Source: a candidate division WWE3 bacterium RAAC2_WWE3_1 (GTDB lineage Bacteria > Patescibacteriota > WWE3 > UBA101185 > UBA10185). Taken from it: a stretch of DNA of 64,000 nucleotides. The notes beneath the pieces were generated by a model. That model was given only the letters and a program-made list of their open reading frames with translations, ran no database searches and was not told the DNA's origin. The position numbers and the translations under genes were made by a program. Numbering within the stretch: position 1 is the first letter of the stretch; each line of letters opens with the position of its first letter. Below, in pieces: positions 2,717 through 13,349 of the stretch. Location: positions 303,341 to 367,340 of the forward strand of contig CP006914.1 of the NCBI GenBank assembly GCA_000503835.1, given 5' to 3'.

Positions 2717-3166
2717 ATGACCTTCTCAGCAAAAAGAAAAATAGTCCTTATATTGTCGCTCATTTTCGCACTTGCCGCGGGTTTTATTCTTATGGTAAAA
2801 GTGTCTTCACCAAAGTTTAATTACGAAATTAAAACGTCCGTTATAGATAACGCCGAACAAATTCCCTTAAAAATCACGCCCCAAAAAGATTCCATTACAT
2901 TTGAAACAAAGTTTTACGACCTAAAGGGTAATTTTGAAACTGCGCAAATGAAGAGAAAATTAAAATTTCAACCGTCCTTTCCATTTTTAATTGTTGATCC
3001 TAACATCACAGTGGTTTTAAGAGACGCTGAGTTTACCGAAGAGGAAACTTATGTTTATTACGAAATTTTCGGAGCGATAAGCAATTTAAATCCTGGTGAG
3101 TACAAGTTAACAATGGTCGACGGGTTCGGAAATTTAATTGACGAAACTTTTGTTGAAATAAAATGA
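2717..3166 (+). CDS. Membrane-anchored hypothetical protein (149 aa)
   Basis: N-terminal signal-anchor (KRKIVLILSLIFALAAGFILMV). Overlaps the next gene by 4 nt (ATGA), suggesting an operon. Confidence 0.5.
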   Translation: MTFSAKRKIVLILSLIFALAAGFILMVKVSSPKFNYEIKTSVIDNAEQIPLKITPQKDSITFETKFYDLKGNFETAQMKRKLKFQPSFPFLIVDPNITVVLRDAEFTEEETYVYYEIFGAISNLNPGEYKLTMVDGFGNLIDETFVEIK

Positions 3167-3981
3167 GCGAACACGGTAAAAAGGTCGGTTTGGCTTTGGG
3201 CAGCGGAGGCTGGCGGGGTTTAGCCCACATCGGGGTCATTAAAGTCCTCGAAAAGAACGGAATTTCCATTGATTACATAACAGGTTCAAGTGTCGGAGCA
3301 TTGGTCGGCGGTTTGTATGCTTATTACGGAAATATCGTAGAACTTGAGAATATTGTTCAAAGTATCGGGTACCTCGACATGTTTCACGCCTTGTCGGATC
3401 CTAAGGCAGAGCTGGGACTTATAAAAGGAAACAAGTTCGTGGCTTTTCTGGAAGGTTATTTAAAGGGAGCAAAAATCGAAGACCTGAAAATACCTTTTAA
3501 AGCCGCGACAACAGATATTTTGACCGGAGAAACCGTATATCTTGATAAGGGCAATTTAGCTACGGCAATAAGAGCCAGCATTTCCGTACCGTTGGTTTTG
3601 GCACCGGTTGATATCGACGGAAAAAAGCTGGTGGACGGAGGAAACTCAACACCCGTACCTACGGAAGAAGTCAGAAGAATGGGAGCGGACGTTGTGATCG
3701 GAGTTAACCTGTACGGAAACATTTTTCCTCTGACTGCAGCTGTGGAAGGTGAGAAGAAATTGGGCGCACGCGAAGTATTTAGTCTCTCTTATCAAATACT
3801 GTTAAACCAAATGGCTAAAGGGAATTTGAAACACGCGGACATTGCTTTGAACCCCAAGATACCCGAGAGGAGCTTTAACCTCTTTAAGTTTGTAAAAGAA
3901 AAAGGCACGGTTTTGGTTGGGGAGGAAGCGATGGATGGGGAGATGGGGGTTTTGAGGGGGTTGTTGGACTCTCAAAGGTGA
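3163..3981 (+). CDS. Patatin-like phospholipase
   Basis: Oxyanion/Gly-rich GLALGSGGWRG, nucleophile elbow GSSVG (GxSxG), and the family's Asp-containing DGG motif (LVDGGNST). Confidence 0.8.
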   Translation: MSEHGKKVGLALGSGGWRGLAHIGVIKVLEKNGISIDYITGSSVGALVGGLYAYYGNIVELENIVQSIGYLDMFHALSDPKAELGLIKGNKFVAFLEGYLKGAKIEDLKIPFKAATTDILTGETVYLDKGNLATAIRASISVPLVLAPVDIDGKKLVDGGNSTPVPTEEVRRMGADVVIGVNLYGNIFPLTAAVEGEKKLGAREVFSLSYQILLNQMAKGNLKHADIALNPKIPERSFNLFKFVKEKGTVLVGEEAMDGEMGVLRGLLDSQR

Positions 3982-4032
3982 GCCGAAAAGGTAGGATAAG
4001 AAGCTTTAGGTGCTGGTTTGAGTACCGTCAAG

Positions 4033-4041
4033 TGCTATAAT
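4033..4041 (+). promoter_or_regulatory. Extended -10 promoter element (TGCTATAAT) upstream of tRNA-Gln
   Basis: Perfect TGnTATAAT 24 nt upstream of the tRNA 5' end. Conserved in the duplicated copy at 8321-8329. Confidence 0.5.
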
Positions 4042-4064
4042 TTCTTGTGTTTGAGCGCGACTAA

Positions 4065-4138
4065 TGGGGGATCGTCTAACGGTAGGACTGCGGGTTTTGG
4101 TCCCGCCTATTGGGGTTCGAATCCCTATCCCCCAGCCA
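4065..4138 (+). tRNA. tRNA-Gln (anticodon TTG), U1:A72, discriminator G, CCA encoded
   Basis: Acceptor TGGGGGA/TCCCCCA, anticodon stem GCGGG/CCCGC with loop TTTTGGT (anticodon TTG), T-arm TGGGG-TTCGAAT-CCCTA. Closely resembles bacterial tRNA-Gln. Confidence 0.8.
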
Positions 4139-4194
4139 GCGTTTTTGTTGTCATAGCGCCACTTACACAAGCAAATTATTTCGCAATTAAGATA

Positions 4195-5109
4195 ATGTAT
4201 AATTTTCGTATGGCTGATATAGGACAAACTAATGTCACGCTTGTTCAAACTGAAACTGCAGACAAACTTGTTCTAAACGGTATTTTGTCTATACCTAATA
4301 AGAATTCTAAGAACATAGTTCTTCATATACACGGCACTTCCGGAAGTTTTTATTGGAACAGTTTCTACAGCTATTTATCTAAAATGAGCGTTGACCTAGG
4401 ATTAACCTTTCTCGCAACAAACAATAGGGGATCCGGAGTTTATGAAGTAGAAAAAGGAACTGTTTATCATGGAGCTAGTTTGGAGAAATTTGAAGATTGC
4501 CTGTTAGACATAGACGCCTGGATTGAATTCTGCCTAAGCAAAGGGTACACAAATATTATTCTTGAGGGTCACAGTTTTGGTACTGAGAAAAGTGTTTATT
4601 ACCTCGTAAAAGGTAAGTACAAGGATAAGATTAAGGCAGTTATTCTTCTGGGATTTTCTGACACAGTTGGTACGCAACGAAGTTACGAAAAGAAAATTGG
4701 TAAAAATTATTTTGAGGAAGCTAATAAACTGGTAGGAGAAAACAGGGGTGAGTATTTACTCGCAGATTTAGGAGCATTGTGTGGGGAACTTCCCATAAGT
4801 GCACAAACTTATCTTAACTATTTTTCTGAAAACTCCGCGTGCTCTATGGCACTTCCATTAAGAAATGGGCGCGATTTAAAGTATTTTCAAAAGATAACAG
4901 TTCCAATTTTGGGGGTGATTGGTGATAAAGATGATGGGGAATACACAATAATCCCCATTAACGATGCTATCAAACTTCTTAATTCAGAAAATATACATGC
5001 GGAAGCGTATAAAATAAAGGACTGCAATCACGGTTTCGACGGTAAAGAGGTCGAATTAGCTAAAATTGTTGAAACATTCCTTACTCAAAAGATCTTAACA
5101 CTTGAATAA
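4195..5109 (+). CDS. Alpha/beta-hydrolase fold protein (GHSFG nucleophile elbow)
   Basis: The ORF-track start at 4018 runs through the tRNA. A realistic start is ATG 4195 or 4210 (MADIGQ...), with a GATAAT box immediately upstream suggesting a leaderless transcript. Motifs HGTSGSF and GHSFGT. Confidence 0.6.
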   Translation: MYNFRMADIGQTNVTLVQTETADKLVLNGILSIPNKNSKNIVLHIHGTSGSFYWNSFYSYLSKMSVDLGLTFLATNNRGSGVYEVEKGTVYHGASLEKFEDCLLDIDAWIEFCLSKGYTNIILEGHSFGTEKSVYYLVKGKYKDKIKAVILLGFSDTVGTQRSYEKKIGKNYFEEANKLVGENRGEYLLADLGALCGELPISAQTYLNYFSENSACSMALPLRNGRDLKYFQKITVPILGVIGDKDDGEYTIIPINDAIKLLNSENIHAEAYKIKDCNHGFDGKEVELAKIVETFLTQKILTLE

Positions 5110-5418
5110 AGAACATCTAACTAATTCCCATGCCCCCAGCCAATGATACGATATTCGAATCAGATCCTTTGTCATGTTATCATTTTATTAATAAGTCGAT
5201 TTTTGGAAGTGTTCGAGAAATTCCTTGAGTTTTGCCGCGGGTTGTCTGAGGAAAACCCCGCCTTTGTCCGTCATAACAACATCATTCCGGAGAATAATTT
5301 CGTCTATATCCAGATAGATCTTCACACCGTCATTATATACATGCAAAAAATTACAGGCTACTCAACAAACCCCACCACCCCTTCTGTACGATCTTACCAA
5401 TATTACCTTATTACAAAG

Positions 5419-5446
5419 TTGCGGGGTGCCAAATATCTGCTAGTAT
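5419..5446 (+). promoter_or_regulatory. Putative sigma70-like promoter (TTGCGG, 16 nt spacer, TAGTAT) upstream of the precursor-peptide ORF
   Basis: Hexamers with canonical spacing about 50 nt upstream of the ATG at 5498. Weak, by-eye call. Confidence 0.25.
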
Positions 5447-5497
5447 ATCGTCATAACCCTTACAGGGTACCCCCAATACATAGAAAGGAGACAGGTA

Positions 5498-5638
5498 ATG
5501 AAATCCAAGCGCAAGCCCGTAAAAGTAGTACCTTTTGGCGCCAAGTATTTGAAAAAAGTTGCGATGGCAAACAAACGCAGCTCTTCAAATACAAACACCG
5601 GAACCGGCACCTCTCAACCCGACGCCGACCACGATTAA
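5498..5638 (+). CDS. Candidate graspetide (microviridin-like RiPP) precursor peptide, 46 aa
   Basis: Not in the ORF track (too short). SD AAAGGAGA sits 7 nt before the ATG. Translation is MKSKRKPVKVVPFGAKYLKKVAMANKRSSSNTNTGTGTSQPDADHD. The leader carries PFGAKYL, matching the PFFARFL leader helix of microviridin precursors. The C-terminal core is rich in Thr/Ser and Asp (candidate omega-ester donors and acceptors). It lies 100 nt upstream of an ATP-grasp ligase. Confidence 0.6.
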   Translation: MKSKRKPVKVVPFGAKYLKKVAMANKRSSSNTNTGTGTSQPDADHD

Positions 5639-5739
5639 GTTTTAAGGTCTCGTCGTTTTATAGTCAGGTTGAGTATGACTAAGGTGATGGCTACTTAAAC
5701 AGAGCAGTCATCACCTTTTTACCTAAGGAGGCAGTTTCA

Positions 5740-6690
5740 ATGAAGGTTTTGGTAATTACTACGAAACCGGACGCTCATGTGAAAATGGTAGCAAGACACT
5801 TGCCAGAATGGGAATTCCTAATTTTTGATCCGTTTAAATTCCCGTACAGACAGGGTATTACCTACCTATTTGAGAACGGAAAGATGGAGATCACACTAGA
5901 CAAGAAGAACTTGTCAGACGCAGATGTAGTGTGGTTTAGAAAACCCAATTACATCAAGTCTACAAAATTTCCTGTCTGTGAGAATCTCCAGGAATTTGCT
6001 TGGAACAGCTACAAAAGGTCTATAACTTGGCTATATGACCTTCTGCCGAACAGCTTCTGGGTTTCCAGACCTAGCAATATTATCAAAGGTGGAAACAAGT
6101 TGTACCAGATGCAGTTAGCTACAAATCTCGGGTTCAACGTTCCGGACACTTTGGTAACAAACAGCACGGCTGAGGCTGAAAGATTTAGGTCCCGTCTCAG
6201 AGATATTGTTACCAAATCCTTGCACAACGAGTTTGTGGATGACGGTGGGGAACTTTACGCCGTGTACACAACTCGGTTACCTGCTGAGGAGAAGATTGAT
6301 TTTTCAGGACTAGCTATCTCACCTGCAATCTTCCAGCAGATGATAGTCGGGGCTGATATCAGAGTTACCGTTATCGGAAGCAAGATATTTGCCACAGAAA
6401 TAAGCAAAAAGGGCAGTTTGCAAGGTGAAATAGATTGGAGACTCGGGGTCGCCGATAGCAGGAAACTTAAGTATTTTCCGACAACCTTGCCGGAGAATCT
6501 TAATGAGTTGTGTCTTGCTCTAGTGAGACAAATGGGTCTCGAATACGGTGCAATAGACCTGATGAGAGATTACAAAGGTAAATATTGGTTTTTGGAAATC
6601 AATCCAAATGGTCAGTGGGGTTTTGTTGAATTACAAACAGGACAACAACTGTCTTTGGCCATAGCTGATTTATTCAGAAACCAAGTATAA
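5740..6690 (+). CDS. ATP-grasp ligase, microviridin MdnC/MvdD-like (graspetide maturase)
   Basis: Strong SD TAAGGAGG. N-terminal pre-ATP-grasp region (VLVITTKPDAHV...DADVVWFRKP) laid out as in MdnC. C-terminal ATP-grasp motifs (AIDLMRDYKGKYWFLEINPNGQW). Confidence 0.65.
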   Translation: MKVLVITTKPDAHVKMVARHLPEWEFLIFDPFKFPYRQGITYLFENGKMEITLDKKNLSDADVVWFRKPNYIKSTKFPVCENLQEFAWNSYKRSITWLYDLLPNSFWVSRPSNIIKGGNKLYQMQLATNLGFNVPDTLVTNSTAEAERFRSRLRDIVTKSLHNEFVDDGGELYAVYTTRLPAEEKIDFSGLAISPAIFQQMIVGADIRVTVIGSKIFATEISKKGSLQGEIDWRLGVADSRKLKYFPTTLPENLNELCLALVRQMGLEYGAIDLMRDYKGKYWFLEINPNGQWGFVELQTGQQLSLAIADLFRNQV

Positions 6691-6696
6691 AATAAA

Positions 6697-6726
6697 AGAG
6701 GTGACCCCCACCACCTCTTTTTAATT
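6697..6726 (+). terminator. Rho-independent terminator after the ATP-grasp gene
   Basis: AAAGAGGTG-ACCCCCAC-CACCTCTTT hairpin followed by TTTAATTT. Confidence 0.5.
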
Positions 6727-6730
6727 TATT

Positions 6731-7234
6731 ATGAAATATTCAAAAATAGCTAAACAAATAAACGAGTTTGCTAAAAACGATCAGTTACTGAGGAATAGGA
6801 TATTTTCTAAACCTAGTATTAGCGAAGAAGATAAAAAAGCACTTGAGGATTTTGACAAAAATTCATCAGATTTTATAAAAAGTATAGTAAGTGAAATCTG
6901 TCTTCCGACAATAACGAAAGTCGGCAAAAAGGCGTCCTATAACTCATGGCTTCTAGTTCAACACTCTCGAGATTTAAAGTTTCAAAAATCATACTTAGGA
7001 TTATTAAAACAAAATGAAAAAGATATTAATCCTGCAAATATCGCGTACCTGGAAGACCGGGTTCTAATGTACGGGGGTAAACCTCAAATTTATGGGACAC
7101 AGTTTGTTCTGAACAAAAAGACCGGAAAGATGGTGCCGTACACTATTTGGGATGCTGCTAACGTCAATGAAAGACGTTCTAAATATAATCTAGGAAAGCT
7201 GGAGGAGCACATAAAAACTTTTTATTCTAATTAA
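6731..7234 (+). CDS. Hypothetical protein (167 aa), island cargo
   Basis: No recognisable motifs. Lies between the ATP-grasp and methyltransferase genes. Confidence 0.45.
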   Translation: MKYSKIAKQINEFAKNDQLLRNRIFSKPSISEEDKKALEDFDKNSSDFIKSIVSEICLPTITKVGKKASYNSWLLVQHSRDLKFQKSYLGLLKQNEKDINPANIAYLEDRVLMYGGKPQIYGTQFVLNKKTGKMVPYTIWDAANVNERRSKYNLGKLEEHIKTFYSN

Positions 7235-7348
7235 CTCATTACCGTCTCAGTCACATTTCAGGGAACAAAATGGTTCTACACTCGTGTGCGCACATTACCC
7301 AAAAACTAATCTACCCAACAATACAACTACCAGTGTATTATTAAACTT

Positions 7349-8110
7349 ATGCATTCAAAAAACGTTGAGGACGCTGTAACCACAATTAGGTACGAGGAAA
7401 AAGGTTTGCCGCCGGAAGGAGAACCCTCCGTCCCCTGGATTTTAAAAGAACTAGATCCCGGCGCGATAGCAAGCAGGACACTGGTTAAATCCTTTAATTT
7501 AGCCAACGAAGATTTGATACACAATGTTCAAAGACACGAAGCGGAAAGAGGAAGATTATTTTCAGATATTTACGAGCAGATGTTAACGAAACACGGACTT
7601 TCACTCAAAGATTCAAAAGTTTTAGAAGTAGGGGCAGGCCCCGGAGCTGTGTGTTTAGGTTTTCAGGAAGTAGGCGCTAAAGTCGTTAGTTTAGACATTT
7701 GGGACGGTAGGGTTTTTTACAATGACGAGGTTCCTTTTGTAATCGGAGACGGTACCGCTTTACCATTTACCGACAATAGTTTTAATTACCTCTCTTTGAC
7801 TTCGGTGTTACACCACCTACCAATAGAGTATAGAAAAACAATGCTGGAAGAAGCACTAAGGGTTGCGGACACAGTACTTATTCAGGAAGATTGTCTCACA
7901 AGCCCTATTACCAATATTGCTATGAAATTAGTAGACGACGGGGTAAGCGGAGAAGTAGGTACGCATCAAGCTGAATCTCACATGACAAAGGAAGGCTGGC
8001 TTAAATATTTCGAAGATGCAGACTTAAAAGTGTTAGAGACCGTAGACTATCATCCCAAATGGTTGGGTGTGGGTATTGAAAAGGCATTTTTCGTAATATC
8101 CCGCTCTTGA
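7349..8110 (+). CDS. Class I SAM-dependent methyltransferase (Methyltransf_11-like)
   Basis: Motif I VLEVGAGPGAV, acidic-residue beta2 end (VVSLDIWD), motif II/III around VADTVLIQE. Confidence 0.65.
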   Translation: MHSKNVEDAVTTIRYEEKGLPPEGEPSVPWILKELDPGAIASRTLVKSFNLANEDLIHNVQRHEAERGRLFSDIYEQMLTKHGLSLKDSKVLEVGAGPGAVCLGFQEVGAKVVSLDIWDGRVFYNDEVPFVIGDGTALPFTDNSFNYLSLTSVLHHLPIEYRKTMLEEALRVADTVLIQEDCLTSPITNIAMKLVDDGVSGEVGTHQAESHMTKEGWLKYFEDADLKVLETVDYHPKWLGVGIEKAFFVISRS

Positions 8111-8267
8111 ATTCTCCGCAATGTTGCGCTTAATCCGAAAATACCGGAACGTAGCTTTAACCTCTTTAAGAATTTTGTAAAAGAAAAAGCACGATGTTGG
8201 TAGGGGAGGATGCGATGGAGGGGAAGGTGGGGGTTTTGAGGGGGTTGCTTACACCTGAAGGTTGAGT

Positions 8268-8282
8268 GGGGGGGGGGGGGGG
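8268..8282. repeat. Homopolymeric G15 tract
   Basis: 15 consecutive G inside the right-hand repeat copy. The left copy has GGTGAGCCGAAAAGG at the equivalent position. Confidence 0.9.
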
Positions 8283-8350
8283 AGTAGAGAGCGTTTAGTG
8301 CTGATTTGAGCTGCTTCAGGTGCTATAATTTCTTGTGTTTATCCGACTAG

Positions 8351-8425
8351 TGGGGGATTGTCTAAAGCGTTAGGGCTGCGGGTTTTGGTCCCGCCTATTG
8401 GGGTTCGAATCCCTATCCCTAGCCA
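8351..8425 (+). pseudogene. Pseudo-tRNA-Gln (TTG): altered D-arm and 1-nt deletion in the 3' acceptor strand
   Basis: TGGGGGATTGTCTAAAGCGTTAGGGCTGCGGGTTTTGGTCCCGCCTATTGGGGTTCGAATCCCTATCCCTAGCCA. Anticodon arm and T-arm are identical to the 4065 copy. The acceptor 3' strand TCCCTAG cannot fully pair with TGGGGGA. Confidence 0.6.
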
Positions 8426-8493
8426 TTTATCAATTTCCTTTAATAGGGCTTGTAATTTGCCGTTACTATATATATATTTCCTTATTGGTAAGT

Positions 8494-8967
8494 ATGCAAT
8501 CTCAAATTCTTGAAAAACTAAAAAAGGAGCTTGGTAAAGATATCGAAAACGAATCACAAGTGGTATATATCCTTTCGCTGATAAGAAAGCTTCTGGAGAT
8601 TGAAAAACTTAAATCTCGGTATCCTATTTTGAATTTCTATTGTAATTGGACGCTTCACTCTGAGATGACTGATACTGAAGGCAAGTTTGTAAATAATATG
8701 CTAAGAAAATTCATCGAAAAACCAGAAGAAAAGTATAAATTAAGTTTTCATCTTCAGTTCTTGGAACAATTCAAGACGTTCTTAACTAAGAAAAATATCA
8801 CTATACCCACAAAAGACAATTTAGAGAAGTTTAGATATCAGCTTCAAAAGATAATATCTAATACTCCGATATTTGTTAAGACGGGTACCAAATATAAAGT
8901 GGAATTTAATGAACCGCAAAATAAAGGTGAAAGCGGGTTATACATTACAACCATTATTGATCCTTAA
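8494..8967 (+). CDS. Hypothetical protein (157 aa)
   Basis: The ORF-track start at 8398 runs through the pseudo-tRNA. The first ATG after it is 8494 (MQSQILEKL...). No known motif. Confidence 0.45.
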   Translation: MQSQILEKLKKELGKDIENESQVVYILSLIRKLLEIEKLKSRYPILNFYCNWTLHSEMTDTEGKFVNNMLRKFIEKPEEKYKLSFHLQFLEQFKTFLTKKNITIPTKDNLEKFRYQLQKIISNTPIFVKTGTKYKVEFNEPQNKGESGLYITTIIDP

Positions 8968-9111
8968 CGGTGTTATAGGGATAAGAAGGCCCGTAATCGC
9001 ACGATGCATCACATAAAAATCACTGTCGGGATCGATCGCAGGAGAGGTGGGACCTATAATCAGTGCCCTCGCTAAATTGAACATCTTCCTCAACTCTGTT
9101 AAATTAAAGGT

Positions 9112-9660
9112 ATGAAAACACCAACCATGGATCTTATAGAAGAGCACGGCGGAATTATGCTGATGCTAAGTGTTATGAAAAAAGTGACTGATAAACTTAA
9201 GGCCGGGGAAGAGGTGAAAAAAGAACACCTCGACAAGATTCTCGAGTTTCTCACAAATTTTGCCGACAAATGTCACCACGGAAAAGAGGAGGACATGCTT
9301 TTCCCGGAGTTATTTAAGAATCCATCAAATCAAGGGTTGGTCGCCGAGCTTATAGACGAGCACACGACCGCTCGTGGTTACATAAAGAGCATAGCAAAGG
9401 CTATGGAAAACTACTCACCCGGAAACTCTGAGGCCTCAACTATCGCCGAAAATATGGAAAAATATATTCAGCTTTTAACCGAGCACATTGGAAAAGAAAA
9501 TAGTGATTTATTTCCCACTGCAAACAACGAGCTTTCTGAAGAAACGCAGGAACAAATGGAGGAACAGTTCGAAAAGTTTGAACACGATGTTATTGGCGAG
9601 GGAAAGCATGAAGAGTACCACGGATGGCTTGAGGAACTGAAAAAAGTGTATTTGAACTAA
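9112..9660 (+). CDS. Hemerythrin-like (HHE cation-binding) domain protein
   Basis: Repeated H...HxxxE motifs (EEHGG; CHHGKEED; DEHTT; EHIGKEN). Confidence 0.55.
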   Translation: MKTPTMDLIEEHGGIMLMLSVMKKVTDKLKAGEEVKKEHLDKILEFLTNFADKCHHGKEEDMLFPELFKNPSNQGLVAELIDEHTTARGYIKSIAKAMENYSPGNSEASTIAENMEKYIQLLTEHIGKENSDLFPTANNELSEETQEQMEEQFEKFEHDVIGEGKHEEYHGWLEELKKVYLN

Positions 9661-9671
9661 TAGAGACTAAA

Positions 9672-10430
9672 TTACCTACAGGTCCAACCACCGTCGACCG
9701 GTAATATTATCCCCGTAACATATTTAGCCGCGTCTGAAGCAAGATAAACCGCTGCACCTGCAATATCATCCGGCTCTCCTGCGTATCCTAATGGTGTGTT
9801 TGCCTTAACCATGGCGTTGAAACCTTCATCTTCCAAAACGTCTTTGGTCATATTTGTCTTGATAAAGCCCGGTGCTATTGCGTTAACTCTTATACTTAGT
9901 GAAGCTAAATCCTGTGCAGCAGCACGGGTCATGTTGGACACCCCACCTTTGGCAGAACTGTACGCAATAGTTCCAGATAACCCGACAATTCCCAGTATCG
10001 ACGTCATATTTATGATGGAGCCTTTGGTATTTGTGGCTTTCATCGCGTTTCCGGCGGCTCTAACCCCGTAAAACACTCCCGACAAGTTCACGGCGATAAC
10101 TTTAGCCCAGTCCGCGTCAGTACAATCCAGTGCACTGCCGAGAGCACCGATACCGGCGTTATTTACCATAATGTCTAGTTTTCCGTACTTTTCTACAACC
10201 GTCCCTACTAATTGATTTACTTCTTCTGATTTGGAAACATCACATTTTGTAAATGAGGCTTTATCACCTAATCCTTCGATAACTTTTGCTCCCGCATCGT
10301 TTATGTCTGAGAAAACTACTGTCGCGCCTTCCTGAAGATAAAGTTTAGCTATTGCCAAACCAATTCCGCTGGACGCACCTGTTACTATTGCGATTTTATT
10401 TTGAAGTTTCATAGATACAAATGATAACAC
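9672..10430 (-). CDS. Short-chain dehydrogenase/reductase (FabG-like)
   Basis: TGASSGIGLAIA Rossmann motif, NNAG, catalytic YSSAKGG (YxxxK). Confidence 0.85.
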   Translation of the reverse strand: MLSFVSMKLQNKIAIVTGASSGIGLAIAKLYLQEGATVVFSDINDAGAKVIEGLGDKASFTKCDVSKSEEVNQLVGTVVEKYGKLDIMVNNAGIGALGSALDCTDADWAKVIAVNLSGVFYGVRAAGNAMKATNTKGSIINMTSILGIVGLSGTIAYSSAKGGVSNMTRAAAQDLASLSIRVNAIAPGFIKTNMTKDVLEDEGFNAMVKANTPLGYAGEPDDIAGAAVYLASDAAKYVTGIILPVDGGWTCR

Positions 10431-10481
10431 ATAAAAATGAGCAGGATTGACGATTTCCCTAATAATGCCTAGACTAAACTA

Positions 10482-13349
10482 ATGCCCAAGAACCTCGTTG
10501 CCCTTTTTTCACCAAAATCAATCGTTGTCATTGGGGCTTCCACATCGCCCGAAAAGGTAGGCGCGGTAATTTTAAAAAACATTGTTGAATCGGAATATAA
10601 AGGCAAAGTTTTCGCGGTTAATCCCAACACAGACGCGATAGGCCAAATAAAATGCTATAAAACCGTTTTAGATCTCCCGGAAATTCCCGATTTAGCAATA
10701 ATTTCTATTCCCGCTGCTTTAGTTCTGCCCACAATACAACAAATCATTGAAAAGGGCATTAAGAACGTGGTGACGCTGACAGCCGGGTTTAAAGAAACCG
10801 GTCACGATGGAGCGGAGCTCGAAAAACAGCTGGAGGATTTATGCACGAAGAACGAAATTAATATGCTCGGACCTAACTGTCTGGGGTTTGTTAATAATCT
10901 AGTCTCTCTTAACGCTACGTTCGCAAAAGTTCCCGCGACCCCCGGTAAATTAAGATTTATTTCACAGTCGGGTGCCCTTGCCACAAGTCTTTTCGATTGG
11001 TTTTCTTTAGTTAACGTGGGGTTTTCCGAATTTATTACAATGGGAAACAAAACAGTAATAAATGAGAACGATGTTTTGGAATATTTTATAAGCAAAGACC
11101 AGGCTCCGATTTCAACTTTGGCCGACGACGTAACGGGAAAAATCGAACCGGTCGGAATGTATCTTGAATCTATTTCCGACGGCCGGCAATTTTTAAAATT
11201 AACAAAACAAATTGCCAAGAACGATCCTATTTTTATTATTAAACCCGGAAAAACTGCGGCGGCAAAAACTGCAATGCAGTCGCACACCGGAGCAATAGCA
11301 GGAGCCGACGATATTTTGGACGTCGCACTCAAACAGTCGGGAGTTTACAGATGTGCTTCTCTCGAAGAATTTTTCGACCTTTCTAAAGCATTTGCCTGGA
11401 ATGAAATTCCCAAAGGTCCTAGAGTTGCCATTATTTCTAACGCCGGAGGTCCGGGAGTAATAAGTGCGGATGCCGTAATAGAAGAAGGTTTGGAAATCGC
11501 TCAGTTCGACGACGAAACAAAAAAGAAATTATCAGAAGTATTACCGAGATCGGCAAGCTTTCTAGACCCGGTAGACGTTCTCGGAGACGCCCTCGCAGAC
11601 CGCTTTTCTGACGCTGCTGAAATTGTCCTTCAAACCGACAAATGTGACTCCCTGCTGGTTATTCTGACACCCCAAATGATGACCCAGATAGAAAAGACGG
11701 CCGAAGTAATTGGTGAGGTTTCAAAAAAGTACCATATCCCCGTCTTCTGTTCCTTCATAGGAGGAAGCGTGGTATCGGCAGGAGAAACAGCGCTTAACAA
11801 CCTCAAAGTGCCGTCCTACATGTTTCCTGAAAGAGCGATAGCGGTCATCGGAGCAATGTGGAAATTCAAGAGTCAGCAGGAAGAAATTTTGAGGGAAATT
11901 GTGGACAAAGGCGTCCTTAACAAACAAATACTCCCTGAGAAGTGCTCCAAAATTTTACAGAAGGCCGTAAGCGCGGGACAGAAAGCTTTAGACAATCTTG
12001 ATGCAGACAGCATAATTTCCCTTTCGGGAATACAAACTCCGGGAACAAAGATTGCGGTAAATCTCAAAGACGCGGCTAAATTTGCAAAAGATATCGGGTA
12101 CCCTGTTGTTTTAAAACTTTCATCGCCCGGGCTTTTACACAAAAAACATTTCGGCGGAGTTATTTTAGATATAAGAAACGAGGATCAACTTGAAAACGGT
12201 TGGAGCACTCTTGAAAGAAAATCCGAAAATCTCGACGCGGAGATAAAAGCGCACGTCAATTTTCAGATCCAAAAAGAAATTCCGAGCGGGGCAGAAGTTT
12301 TTGTGGGAATTAAAAGAGATCCCACATTCGGACCGGTATTATTGTTCGGCGCCGGAGGTTCGCTGGTAGAACTTATATCTGATAGAAACCTTCATCTTCT
12401 TCCTATGGACACGATAAGCATTCAGGAATTAGTTAAAGATTCCAAAATTTACTCTGTTCTTAAAGGTACAGAAAATGAGCCTCCTTACGCATTAGACAAG
12501 CTTTATAAACTGATATTCGACCTGCAAAAGCTATATGAAGCAGCACAGGAAATCCAGGAAATAGAAATAAATCCCGTGATAGTAACCACAAACGATGTCT
12601 GGGCGGTAGATACAAAAGTAATCTTAGAAGCAGGCAAAGCTAAACCCGCAGGCCCGAAGTTCAAAGTTGCTAAAACCTTGAAAACAGAGGTACTAGCTGG
12701 AAAGATTCACTATTTTGAATTCGAAGCGGACGAACCTCTGATATTAAAGCCCGGGCAGTATATAAGCGTAAAGGTGTCCTCAACGAGAATTAACTGTTAT
12801 TCTGTGGCCGGACAGACCGCTCCAAATAAATTTAATCTTCTTGTCGATTCATCCCCCGGAGGGCCCGGCTCAAAATTCTTCGAGGCTTTAAAAGAAGGGG
12901 ATGTGATTACATATCTCGGACCTTTCGGTACGTTCACATTAAAACCCGATGATGGAGCAGATTCAATATTATTTATGGCAACAGGTTCGGGTTTGGCTCC
13001 ACTAAAATTAATGTTTGAACATCTACTCAAAGTAGAAAAGACGAAAAAGAACATCGTGCTGTACCTGGGATTAAATAATTGCGAGGACGTGTTTATGGAA
13101 GAGTACTTTGAATCGCTATCCAAAGAATTTCCGAATTTTAAATATAATATCGCTGTGTGCAACAAGAGCACCAAATGGAAAGGCGCGACGGGATTTATTA
13201 CTCCTTTGGTGAAAAAAGACTTCCCCGATGCAGGCAAATGTTCCGCATATCTCTGCGGAAATAAGTTTATGATAAAAGATGTTGCAAAAGTTCTGACCGA
13301 TGCCGGGTGCCCGACTGACAGAATTTATTTCGAAAAATATGATGCCTAA
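10482..13349 (+). CDS. ADP-forming acetyl-CoA synthetase (alpha-beta fusion) with C-terminal FNR-like FAD/NAD(P) reductase domain
   Basis: N-terminal CoA-binding (SIVVIGAS), succinyl-CoA-ligase-like and ATP-grasp regions (GYPVVLKLSSPGLLHKKHFGGV). C-terminal ~250 aa carry RINCYSVAG (FAD RxYS), MATGSGLAPL (NAD(P)-binding) and YLCGNKFMIKD, an FNR-family module. Total length 955 aa. Confidence 0.75.
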   Translation: MPKNLVALFSPKSIVVIGASTSPEKVGAVILKNIVESEYKGKVFAVNPNTDAIGQIKCYKTVLDLPEIPDLAIISIPAALVLPTIQQIIEKGIKNVVTLTAGFKETGHDGAELEKQLEDLCTKNEINMLGPNCLGFVNNLVSLNATFAKVPATPGKLRFISQSGALATSLFDWFSLVNVGFSEFITMGNKTVINENDVLEYFISKDQAPISTLADDVTGKIEPVGMYLESISDGRQFLKLTKQIAKNDPIFIIKPGKTAAAKTAMQSHTGAIAGADDILDVALKQSGVYRCASLEEFFDLSKAFAWNEIPKGPRVAIISNAGGPGVISADAVIEEGLEIAQFDDETKKKLSEVLPRSASFLDPVDVLGDALADRFSDAAEIVLQTDKCDSLLVILTPQMMTQIEKTAEVIGEVSKKYHIPVFCSFIGGSVVSAGETALNNLKVPSYMFPERAIAVIGAMWKFKSQQEEILREIVDKGVLNKQILPEKCSKILQKAVSAGQKALDNLDADSIISLSGIQTPGTKIAVNLKDAAKFAKDIGYPVVLKLSSPGLLHKKHFGGVILDIRNEDQLENGWSTLERKSENLDAEIKAHVNFQIQKEIPSGAEVFVGIKRDPTFGPVLLFGAGGSLVELISDRNLHLLPMDTISIQELVKDSKIYSVLKGTENEPPYALDKLYKLIFDLQKLYEAAQEIQEIEINPVIVTTNDVWAVDTKVILEAGKAKPAGPKFKVAKTLKTEVLAGKIHYFEFEADEPLILKPGQYISVKVSSTRINCYSVAGQTAPNKFNLLVDSSPGGPGSKFFEALKEGDVITYLGPFGTFTLKPDDGADSILFMATGSGLAPLKLMFEHLLKVEKTKKNIVLYLGLNNCEDVFMEEYFESLSKEFPNFKYNIAVCNKSTKWKGATGFITPLVKKDFPDAGKCSAYLCGNKFMIKDVAKVLTDAGCPTDRIYFEKYDA

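Follow-up and report, generated by a model that had tools for sequence, protein, structure and literature searches.

The subject of this study is an imperfect direct repeat of about 300 bp in a 64,000-nt stretch of candidate division WWE3 bacterium RAAC2_WWE3_1 (CP006914.1; the whole stretch is called the window below, and all coordinates are positions in it unless a contig is named). The host belongs to the candidate phyla radiation (CPR) and the sequences come from aquifer (groundwater) metagenomes. Each copy of the repeat carries the end of a gene encoding a patatin-like phospholipase, a promoter-like block and a tRNA-Gln. Comparison with the loci of relatives (designated by L numbers) indicates that the repeat unites, in one chromosome, the alleles of the same locus from two lineages. 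It is probably a recombination scar, resulting from a one-ended homologous recombination coupled to an illegitimate join (homology-facilitated illegitimate recombination, HFIR, of the 'displacement' type), and not a duplication of attachment (att) sites by an integrase.

The repeat search returned four in-register blocks with a spacing of 4282-4288, and MAFFT pairs positions 3842-4138 with 8124-8425, 235 of the 298 aligned bases being equal (79%), with 12 gap columns. The homology between 3841-4138 and 8123-8425 proposed by an earlier reading made without any database search (the sequence-only reading) is thus confirmed, with 79-81% identity, in-register blocks and a blastn E value of ~1e-65 between the copies. 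The left copy (3842-4138, plus strand) comprises the last 47 codons of an intact 272-aa patatin gene (3163-3981, plus strand; Pfam PF01734, E 1.7e-29), a spacer, an extended -10-like block and a functional tRNA-Gln(UUG) (4065-4138, plus strand; called by ARAGORN, 54.2 bits with Rfam, cloverleaf as minimum-energy fold), and is collinear with the orthologous loci of relatives. The orphaned right copy (8117-8425, plus strand) begins where the homology to the patatin genes of other lineages begins, at 8117. Alignment shows that it has in common with the left copy the last ~47 patatin codons, the tRNA-Gln(UUG) and an identical 21-mer, GTGCTATAATTTCTTGTGTTT, located upstream of each tRNA (4032-4052, plus strand, and 8320-8340), in agreement with the patatin end, promoter and tRNA-Gln that had been recognized in both copies. 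A simple sigma-70 promoter scan did not flag the conserved TGCTATAAT block because the latter is without a -35 match. Identity amounts to 79% in the patatin stub, 72% in the intergenic part and 85% in the tRNA, and the longest near-identical run, 52 nt at 96% including an exact 44-mer, corresponds to the 3' half of the tRNA.

The locus is found at 99.9-100% identity in JGI 3300025011, 3300024999 and 3300025000 and in GCA_000999505.1, GCA_003449455.1 and GCA_003525165.1, and the two-copy arrangement also occurs in ERZ28564009. All of the 23-24 longest contigs read display the same structure, which, from all contigs examined, is fixed in the sampled population. It could still be asked whether the arrangement is an artefact, i.e. 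a chimeric join or a collapsed repeat, since a G-rich tract of the right copy (8268-8282) perturbs assemblies (NN gap in L003, contig end in L069, G9-G15 variants) and since the ATP-grasp region of scaffold L027 is either a chimera or a recombinant. However, the same arrangement recurs in many independent samples and assemblers, and the 20% divergence of the copies makes their collapse or confusion impossible; mis-assembly, which the sequence-only reading had named among the objections that would undo it, therefore deserves next to no credence. The length of the G tract is another matter. The window reads G15, as had been reported, whereas G9-10 AGGTAG stands there in further assemblies from this organism; among L001, L002, L003, L067, L068 and L069, one contig begins inside G14 and one scaffold has an NN gap. 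The homopolymer length is thus unreliable or variable, and G-rich spacers occupy the same position in other lineages too. In GCA_003449455.1 (L003), the right copy seems to be 186 bp shorter, but a polymorphism or an excision product was rejected, as the deletion corresponds to the NN scaffold gap at this tract.

The right copy is decayed. Its patatin stub (8123-8266, plus strand) is broken by one 1-nt deletion; once the frame is restored, it reads VALNPKIPERSFNLFKNFVKEKxTMLVGEDAMEGKVGVLRGLLTPEG*, the stop codon being kept at the homologous place. The right tRNA (8351-8425) carries a 2-nt D-loop insertion destroying the GG motif, has three bases substituted within or next to the D arm, and shows an acceptor 3' strand changed from CCCCCA to CCCT-A; this tRNA-Gln is otherwise near-invariant (one variable D-loop base) across 13 lineage sequences. 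Rfam gives the right tRNA 31.0 bits, close to the gathering threshold of 29, and its minimum-energy fold is no cloverleaf. Judged by alignment, Rfam and fold, it is a tRNA pseudogene that has lost its structure relative to a conserved functional paralogue, and the broken patatin frame, the change in the D arm, the 1-nt loss in the acceptor stem and the pseudo-tRNA had all been correctly described. ARAGORN still labels it tRNA-Gln, which calls for caution in annotation: the second tRNA-Gln called by both ARAGORN and Rfam is a pseudogene.

The differences between the two patatin stubs fall on codon positions 1, 2 and 3 in the numbers 11, 1 and 15 (45 comparable codons; pN 0.146, pS 0.399, i.e. 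a pN/pS of ~0.37), a pattern indicating that both stubs diverged under purifying selection inside working genes. Furthermore, an AAT codon (in FKNFVKEKG) is kept in the right stub and in all relatives and is absent from the left copy, and the right stub is 86.7-87.4% identical to the orthologous stretch of species L004 (RIFOXYB1_FULL_43_24) but only 79-81% identical to the left copy, and it clusters with L004 in neighbour-joining trees. The substitution pattern and the affinity to L004 therefore speak for two lineage versions and not for decay after duplication, which fits the recombination with a relative's locus that the sequence-only reading had suggested. An in-genome segmental duplication of the patatin 3' end and tRNA-Gln, followed by neutral decay of the right copy, would explain why the copies lie on the same strand in the same order and why the right one is plainly degenerating, and L034 does display an independent 79-nt duplication of the leader and 5' part of tRNA-Gln. 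Nevertheless, such an origin is highly improbable. Neutral decay would give about equal numbers of changes at the three codon positions (chi-square ~11.6, hand-computed), the ancestral AAT codon would not be kept in the right copy and lost from the left one, and the right copy would not be nearer to L004 than to the left copy. In addition, a divergence of 20% implies an age equal to that of a species split, yet no relative carries the duplication: no second repeat copy was found in the 28 metagenome and 7 genome loci searched.

The DNA located between the copies has been compared with two other WWE3 species. Species D (L024, L026 and L029-L031, L031 being the same genome as L006) matches the window from 5395 to 7185 with 89.3% DNA identity, and the protein match continues to the stop codon of a DUF6624 gene at 7234. 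In species D, this block sits 2-4.4 kb upstream of the same hemerythrin-SDR-ACS-POR genes that follow the right copy in the window, without adjoining patatin or tRNA-Gln. Species E (L060/L061) is collinear over 5403-8115, including the methyltransferase gene (89.9%); its homology ends at 8115 and resumes at 9074. This makes a sharp junction, as patatin homology starts at 8117, 7 nt past the methyltransferase stop codon. Only 4139-5394 (hydrolase) and 8116-9073 (stub, pseudo-tRNA and gene 8494) are thus peculiar to this genome relative to species D and E. As the core block (5395-8115, plus strand) is collinear with the right flank in relatives, the interval can be described as a mosaic with several junctions and not as one cargo; the view that everything between the copies is inserted cargo fails as a single insertion. 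More generally, an 'island' bracketed by repeats can mix resident and incoming pieces, of which annotators should beware.

Two further observations concern this block. Scaffold L027 (ERZ28564009 scaffold_1093) could pass for a 1%-divergent strain, but this was rejected: it is 100% identical to the window except for 5416-6715, where it is 100% identical to the species D allele (L024). About 1.3 kb over the precursor and ATP-grasp genes described below thus has another species' allele, by either inter-species gene conversion or assembly chimerism, and L027 was not used as evidence. Moreover, L024 and L026 have essentially the same gene tables over their first ~13.5 kb, from a radical SAM/SPASM gene to a leucine-rich repeat gene, and give the same blastn result against 5395-7185 (89.3%). 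Rightward, L026 is without the Rce1-like, PEMT and RNase T genes, with an identity to the window of ~77% versus 79-86%. This suggests that the left block shared by L024 and L026 has recombined or been transferred between species.

From these features, we infer that DNA of a related WWE3 lineage, bearing its own allele of patatin 3' end, promoter and tRNA-Gln, was joined in by homologous recombination on one side and, on the other, by an illegitimate join at 8115/8117, just past the methyltransferase stop codon. Two lineage alleles would have been left 4.3 kb apart. As the left copy completes patatin and supplies the tRNA-Gln, only this copy would be needed, and the redundant right copy would have decayed to a frameshifted stub and a pseudo-tRNA. 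The data are compatible with two polarities. In the first, the incoming fragment (stub, tRNA-Gln, gene 8494, hemerythrin and beyond) would have been anchored on the right flank and its free end joined after the methyltransferase gene, replacing what occupies this place in species E, namely RNase T and two genes for products of 353 and 69 aa. In the second, a fragment ending with patatin, tRNA-Gln, hydrolase, cluster and methyltransferase would have been anchored in or upstream of patatin, and its free end would have joined inside the resident patatin, pushing the resident stub, tRNA and gene 8494 downstream. The ratios of 3' to upstream distance are 1.08-1.34 for the left stub, like those of other lineage pairs, and 0.92-1.74 for the right stub. 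They weakly suggest that the left stub is the native end of the resident patatin, thus leaning to the first polarity, although this ratio test is uninformative if the crossover lies upstream of patatin. A sliding identity profile across patatin, examined for a breakpoint near 3841, displays no clear step.

Besides this limit of the ratio test, several points weigh against a recombination scar of this kind. At the junction 8115-8117, microhomology is 1-2 nt at most and none is convincing. The neighbour-joining trees in which the right stub pairs with L004 (64-87% bootstrap) are based on only ~145 sites. In its intergenic part, the right copy resembles L006 and the left copy more than it does L004, and therefore the donor itself would be a mosaic. 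No donor closer to the right copy than L004 was found, the nearest being at 87%. The decay is uneven, with ~6 lesions in the 74 nt of the pseudo-tRNA versus one frame-breaking change in the stub. The contigs that encode exactly the same patatin or 8494 protein were searched for an empty site or an excision variant, and neither was found; nor was any relative of this species devoid of the duplication. Finally, to our knowledge, neither natural transformation nor HFIR has been demonstrated in WWE3 or other CPR bacteria.

The proposed recombination scar has a published precedent. Orphaned 3' stubs in type VI secretion system (T6SS) and Rhs loci have been attributed to displacement of the HFIR type (Kirchberger et al. 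2017, PMC5361080), for which that paper cites Jackson et al. 2009, de Vries & Wackernagel 2002 and Prudhomme et al. 2002. As in the displacement described for Rhs, contact-dependent inhibition (CDI) and T6SS loci, a conserved upstream gene serves as anchor, a relative contributes a new 3' end with new genes downstream, the former stub is orphaned further along together with the gene that follows it, the alleles are divergent and there is no recombinase. The window displays a duplicated 3' end of a conserved flanking gene, an orphan stub at an abrupt junction and alleles of different lineages. It differs in that the anchor, instead of being a toxin gene, consists of patatin together with a tRNA gene and the promoter of the latter, that there is one stub and no array, that the orphan tRNA has become a pseudogene, that the host is a CPR bacterium in which transformation is unproven, and that the event may be a right-anchored replacement rather than a displacement. 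The scar is therefore a further example of an ordinary, known kind, and neither a new type of mobile element nor a new mechanism. Its value is that of a tangible and datable mark of DNA having passed between separate CPR (WWE3) species of a single aquifer community. These organisms cannot yet be cultured or genetically tested.

The tRNA-Gln lies at the end of a conserved left flank. The order FAD/NAD oxidoreductase (first gene, minus strand; Pfam), 149-aa protein (p149), patatin, tRNA-Gln is syntenic in L004, L006 and many metagenome loci, and the left flanks of L004, L005 and L006 are collinear with the window, at 78-85%, up to 4138, where the tRNA has its 3' end. Downstream of it, these three loci have no match to the window, even by tblastx. 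In L034, collinearity runs ~20 nt past 4138. The intact tRNA is followed by ~17 nt, GTTTTTGTTGTCATAGC, that are common to the window and L034 and are therefore probably the native trailer of tRNA-Gln. Scanning metagenome contigs with the invariant 44-mer of tRNA-Gln gave 28 further loci, most of which have oxidoreductase-p149-patatin-tRNA-Gln upstream and differing content downstream. At least nine different downstream contents occur across lineages, including at least five full-length large serine recombinases (508-586 aa, with at most 45% mutual identity) plus a truncated one, a Vsr/Dcm (restriction-modification) island and nucleotidyltransferase-like genes. Single contigs link both ends of the interval: L037 carries patatin-tRNA-Gln, two genes and hemerythrin-SDR within 3 kb, and in L051, patatin-tRNA-Gln is followed by a serine recombinase, more genes, DUF6624 and hemerythrin-SDR-ACS, 6.7 kb apart. 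The tRNA-Gln can thus be regarded as a strong hotspot, and the DNA from tRNA-Gln to hemerythrin as one long-lived hypervariable interval. The hotspot proposed by the sequence-only reading is upheld by the end of the relatives' collinearity at or near 4138 and by a downstream content that differs in every lineage.

The recombinases found there have a common feature. At least five unrelated large serine recombinases, encoded on the minus strand, share the same 20 C-terminal residues, WLGDRDSNPNRRDQNPQSY(R/H) (L036, L038, L039, L042, L044, L045, L049, L051, L055, L056, L057 and L059). This tail is encoded by the antisense strand of the tRNA-Gln 3' half (4079-4138 in the window). Therefore, the integrase open reading frame (ORF) spans the attachment junction and integration would alter the C-terminus. 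In L049 (oriented 4613-6163 and 9238-10890), two different serine recombinase genes lie in tandem after one tRNA-Gln; the second product is 83% identical to the recombinase of the L006 element and its gene is followed by a primase gene. These tandem genes indicate stacked integrative elements. A single tRNA-Gln thus serves, beside a graspetide cluster, as a shared landing pad for many unrelated integrative elements. In L034 (oriented 853-931 / 969-1045), the intact tRNA is preceded, at a distance of 116 nt, by the 79-nt direct repeat, which takes in the leader and ~32 nt from the start of tRNA-Gln (score 74 versus a shuffle maximum of 28). As this duplication is independent, partial duplications recur at tRNA-Gln.

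Such a hotspot raises the question of a classical tRNA-targeting island, in which an integrase would have inserted 4139-8350, the two copies being attL and attR and the integrase having been lost later. Like tRNA-linked islands and prophages, the locus has a tRNA 3' end used by several elements, and occupied differently among lineages, and each copy stops on its right at the tRNA 3' end, where the serine recombinase elements of relatives begin; a short 3'-end repeat even closes a hydrolase cassette inside. However, att repeats are short, near-identical and cover only part of the tRNA. The repeat considered here, by contrast, is ~300 bp long, only ~80% identical and extends 220 bp upstream into a protein gene, the substitutions in its stub part point to long independent evolution under selection, and the core of the cargo is collinear with the right flank in relatives. 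Nor is there an integrase. No recombinase Pfam family was found on the called genes of ~21 kb of L001 around the locus, a search of the island for remnants of integrase pseudogenes was negative, and in a tblastn search of the whole 64 kb with 12 serine recombinases only the tRNA antisense matched, tyrosine recombinases not having been searched across all 64 kb. The sequence-only reading had likewise noted the lack of an integrase in the window. The repeat being too long, too divergent, too far into the gene and without integrase, an att duplication is improbable.

A circle of ~4.3 kb, excised imprecisely from another WWE3 lineage together with captured host flank and inserted by a Campbell-type crossover, deserves somewhat more attention, while still being unlikely. 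This circle would consist of the tRNA 3' part, hydrolase, graspetide cluster, methyltransferase, patatin stub, promoter and tRNA 5' part, and the crossover would have occurred inside the 300 bp that circle and resident locus have in common, the identical 44-52 nt of the tRNA being the most likely place. Such an insertion reproduces the observed order exactly, it is in the tRNA 3' half that the copies have their longest identical run, and tRNA-Gln is much used by integrative elements in relatives. The proposal of the sequence-only reading that an element had captured host flank would fit this scheme, but is weakened by the cargo, whose genes, in species D and E, are merely neighbours of hemerythrin on the chromosome and include no replication or recombination gene. 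Furthermore, the scheme needs an illegitimate circle formation and then a homologous crossover, the repeats lack a clear chimeric pattern, and no circular or free form was observed in any assembly examined.

If the repeat is a recombination scar as proposed, integrase-independent displacement between co-occurring WWE3 or other CPR species, in which DNA taken up from a relative would be anchored by homology on one side only, leaving fossils made of a stub and a tRNA, may have diversified the interval from tRNA-Gln to hemerythrin more generally. Layered upon it would be the at least five serine recombinases with frames completed by 20 tRNA-antisense codons, and the orphan promoter block might drive gene 8494. 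This extension is tentative, and at present a conjecture rather than the expected outcome.

The hydrolase next to the intact tRNA has a history of its own. This 299-aa alpha/beta hydrolase, DUF1749-like by Pfam (4210-5109, plus strand), has no homologue at the same place in relatives, its position being species-specific; a 28%-identical paralogue is encoded near tRNA-Gln in L020, an unrelated contig. The tRNA 3' end, AATCCCTAT-CCCCCAGCCA (4120-4138, plus strand), recurs as AATTCCCATGCCCCCAGCCA at 5123-5142 (plus strand), just past the hydrolase stop codon. These att-like arms form a local alignment of 17/20 that beats 99.9% of shuffles (p ~0.001), and the 10-mer CCCCCAGCCA occurs twice in the 64 kb versus 0.10 expected. 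An identical 17-mer, TCCCATGCCCCCAGCCA, is found on the same strand at 5123-5142 in the window and at 4064-4080 (oriented) in L055, respectively 1.0 and 2.3 kb downstream of tRNA-Gln; in L055, it closes a segment that opens with the truncated serine recombinase gene. This 17-20-nt repeat is probably an attR-type remnant closing a hydrolase cassette, its att nature being deduced from position and similarity, and the hydrolase beside the intact tRNA seems to be what is left of an element that had integrated site-specifically. The view of the island as one cargo had overlooked this short repeat.

Gene 8494 (8494-8967, plus strand), which encodes a 157-aa protein, is specific to this species at this position and has no family match in Pfam, PHROGs or NCBIfam; PHROGs and NCBIfam also gave nothing for the hydrolase or DUF6624. 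Its best homologue outside the species (74% amino acid identity) lies directly after a tRNA-Gln(UUG) in L020, where it is followed by DUF1697, the DUF1749 hydrolase and a HAD hydrolase. In nature, tRNA-Gln and an 8494 homologue are therefore paired elsewhere too. The empty site that the sequence-only reading had proposed to look for, with patatin-tRNA-Gln directly followed by gene 8494, was found in no WWE3 relative, only L020 having tRNA-Gln-8494; nor was any other WWE3 lineage found with tRNA-Gln followed by the hydrolase and the graspetide cluster.

The core block encodes a predicted graspetide locus, i.e. the ribosomally made, post-translationally modified peptide (RiPP) would be modified by an ATP-grasp enzyme. 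The latter (5740-6690, plus strand) can be assigned to the graspetide maturases of the MdnC/MvdD/CdnC family from its PDB matches (CdnC 7mgv, 2e-31; MvdD-like 9bou, 3e-30; MdnC/MdnB 5ig8/5ig9, ~1e-26 to 1e-28), from TIGR04187 'ATP-grasp ribosomal peptide maturase' (E 7.7e-60, 202.7 bits, below the curated 350-bit cut-off) and from its RimK and weak MvdD pre-ATP-grasp matches in Pfam. The putative precursor is a 46-aa ORF (5498-5638, plus strand) located 100 nt upstream, with a core, NTNTGTGTSQPDADHD, rich in Thr/Ser and Asp. This core is invariant between the window and species D, the part of the peptide upstream of it showing 4 changes; macrocycle formation is a prediction. DUF6624 (6731-7234, plus strand) and an S-adenosylmethionine-dependent methyltransferase (7349-8110, plus strand) follow. 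CPR graspetide loci with a companion protein, UbiE-like methyltransferase, SPASM enzymes, zincin peptidases and possibly alpha/beta hydrolases have been described (Makarova et al. 2022, PMC8939145), and therefore the graspetide part is known biology. Like the clusters of branches 1/2 in that work, the present one has an MvdD/MdnC/CdnC-type ATP-grasp beside a small precursor rich in Thr/Ser and Asp, and, nearby, an alpha/beta hydrolase, a UbiE-like methyltransferase and a companion protein that is uncharacterised. It differs from them by a hydrolase that is split off by the att-like repeat and absent in species D and E.

The conserved right flank (9073-13349), where the homology to species D and E resumes (9073/9074), starts with hemerythrin (9112-9660, plus strand) and SDR (9672-10430, minus strand), followed by an ACS-like fusion of 955 aa (10482-13349, plus strand) and then POR. 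The region 10482-13349 encodes an ADP-forming acyl-CoA synthetase (ACS; CoA-binding, ligase and ATP-grasp_5 domains) fused to a C-terminal FAD/NAD-binding oxidoreductase module, and this 955-aa fusion is conserved across these WWE3 species. The GC content is 0.36-0.37 in the hydrolase region, 0.34 in DUF6624 and 0.32 in gene 8494 versus 0.39-0.47 in the flanks, a difference that is not decisive for foreignness. Near the start of the window, partial copies of a tRNA-Val (218-294) lie on either side of it, one at 106-127 repeating the 5' 22 nt (100%) and one at 316-360 repeating the 3' 45 nt (93%). The number of these partial copies (106-360) varies between assemblies and relatives (L002, L006), so that the surroundings of tRNA-Val look like those of another tRNA with scars of integration or recombination.

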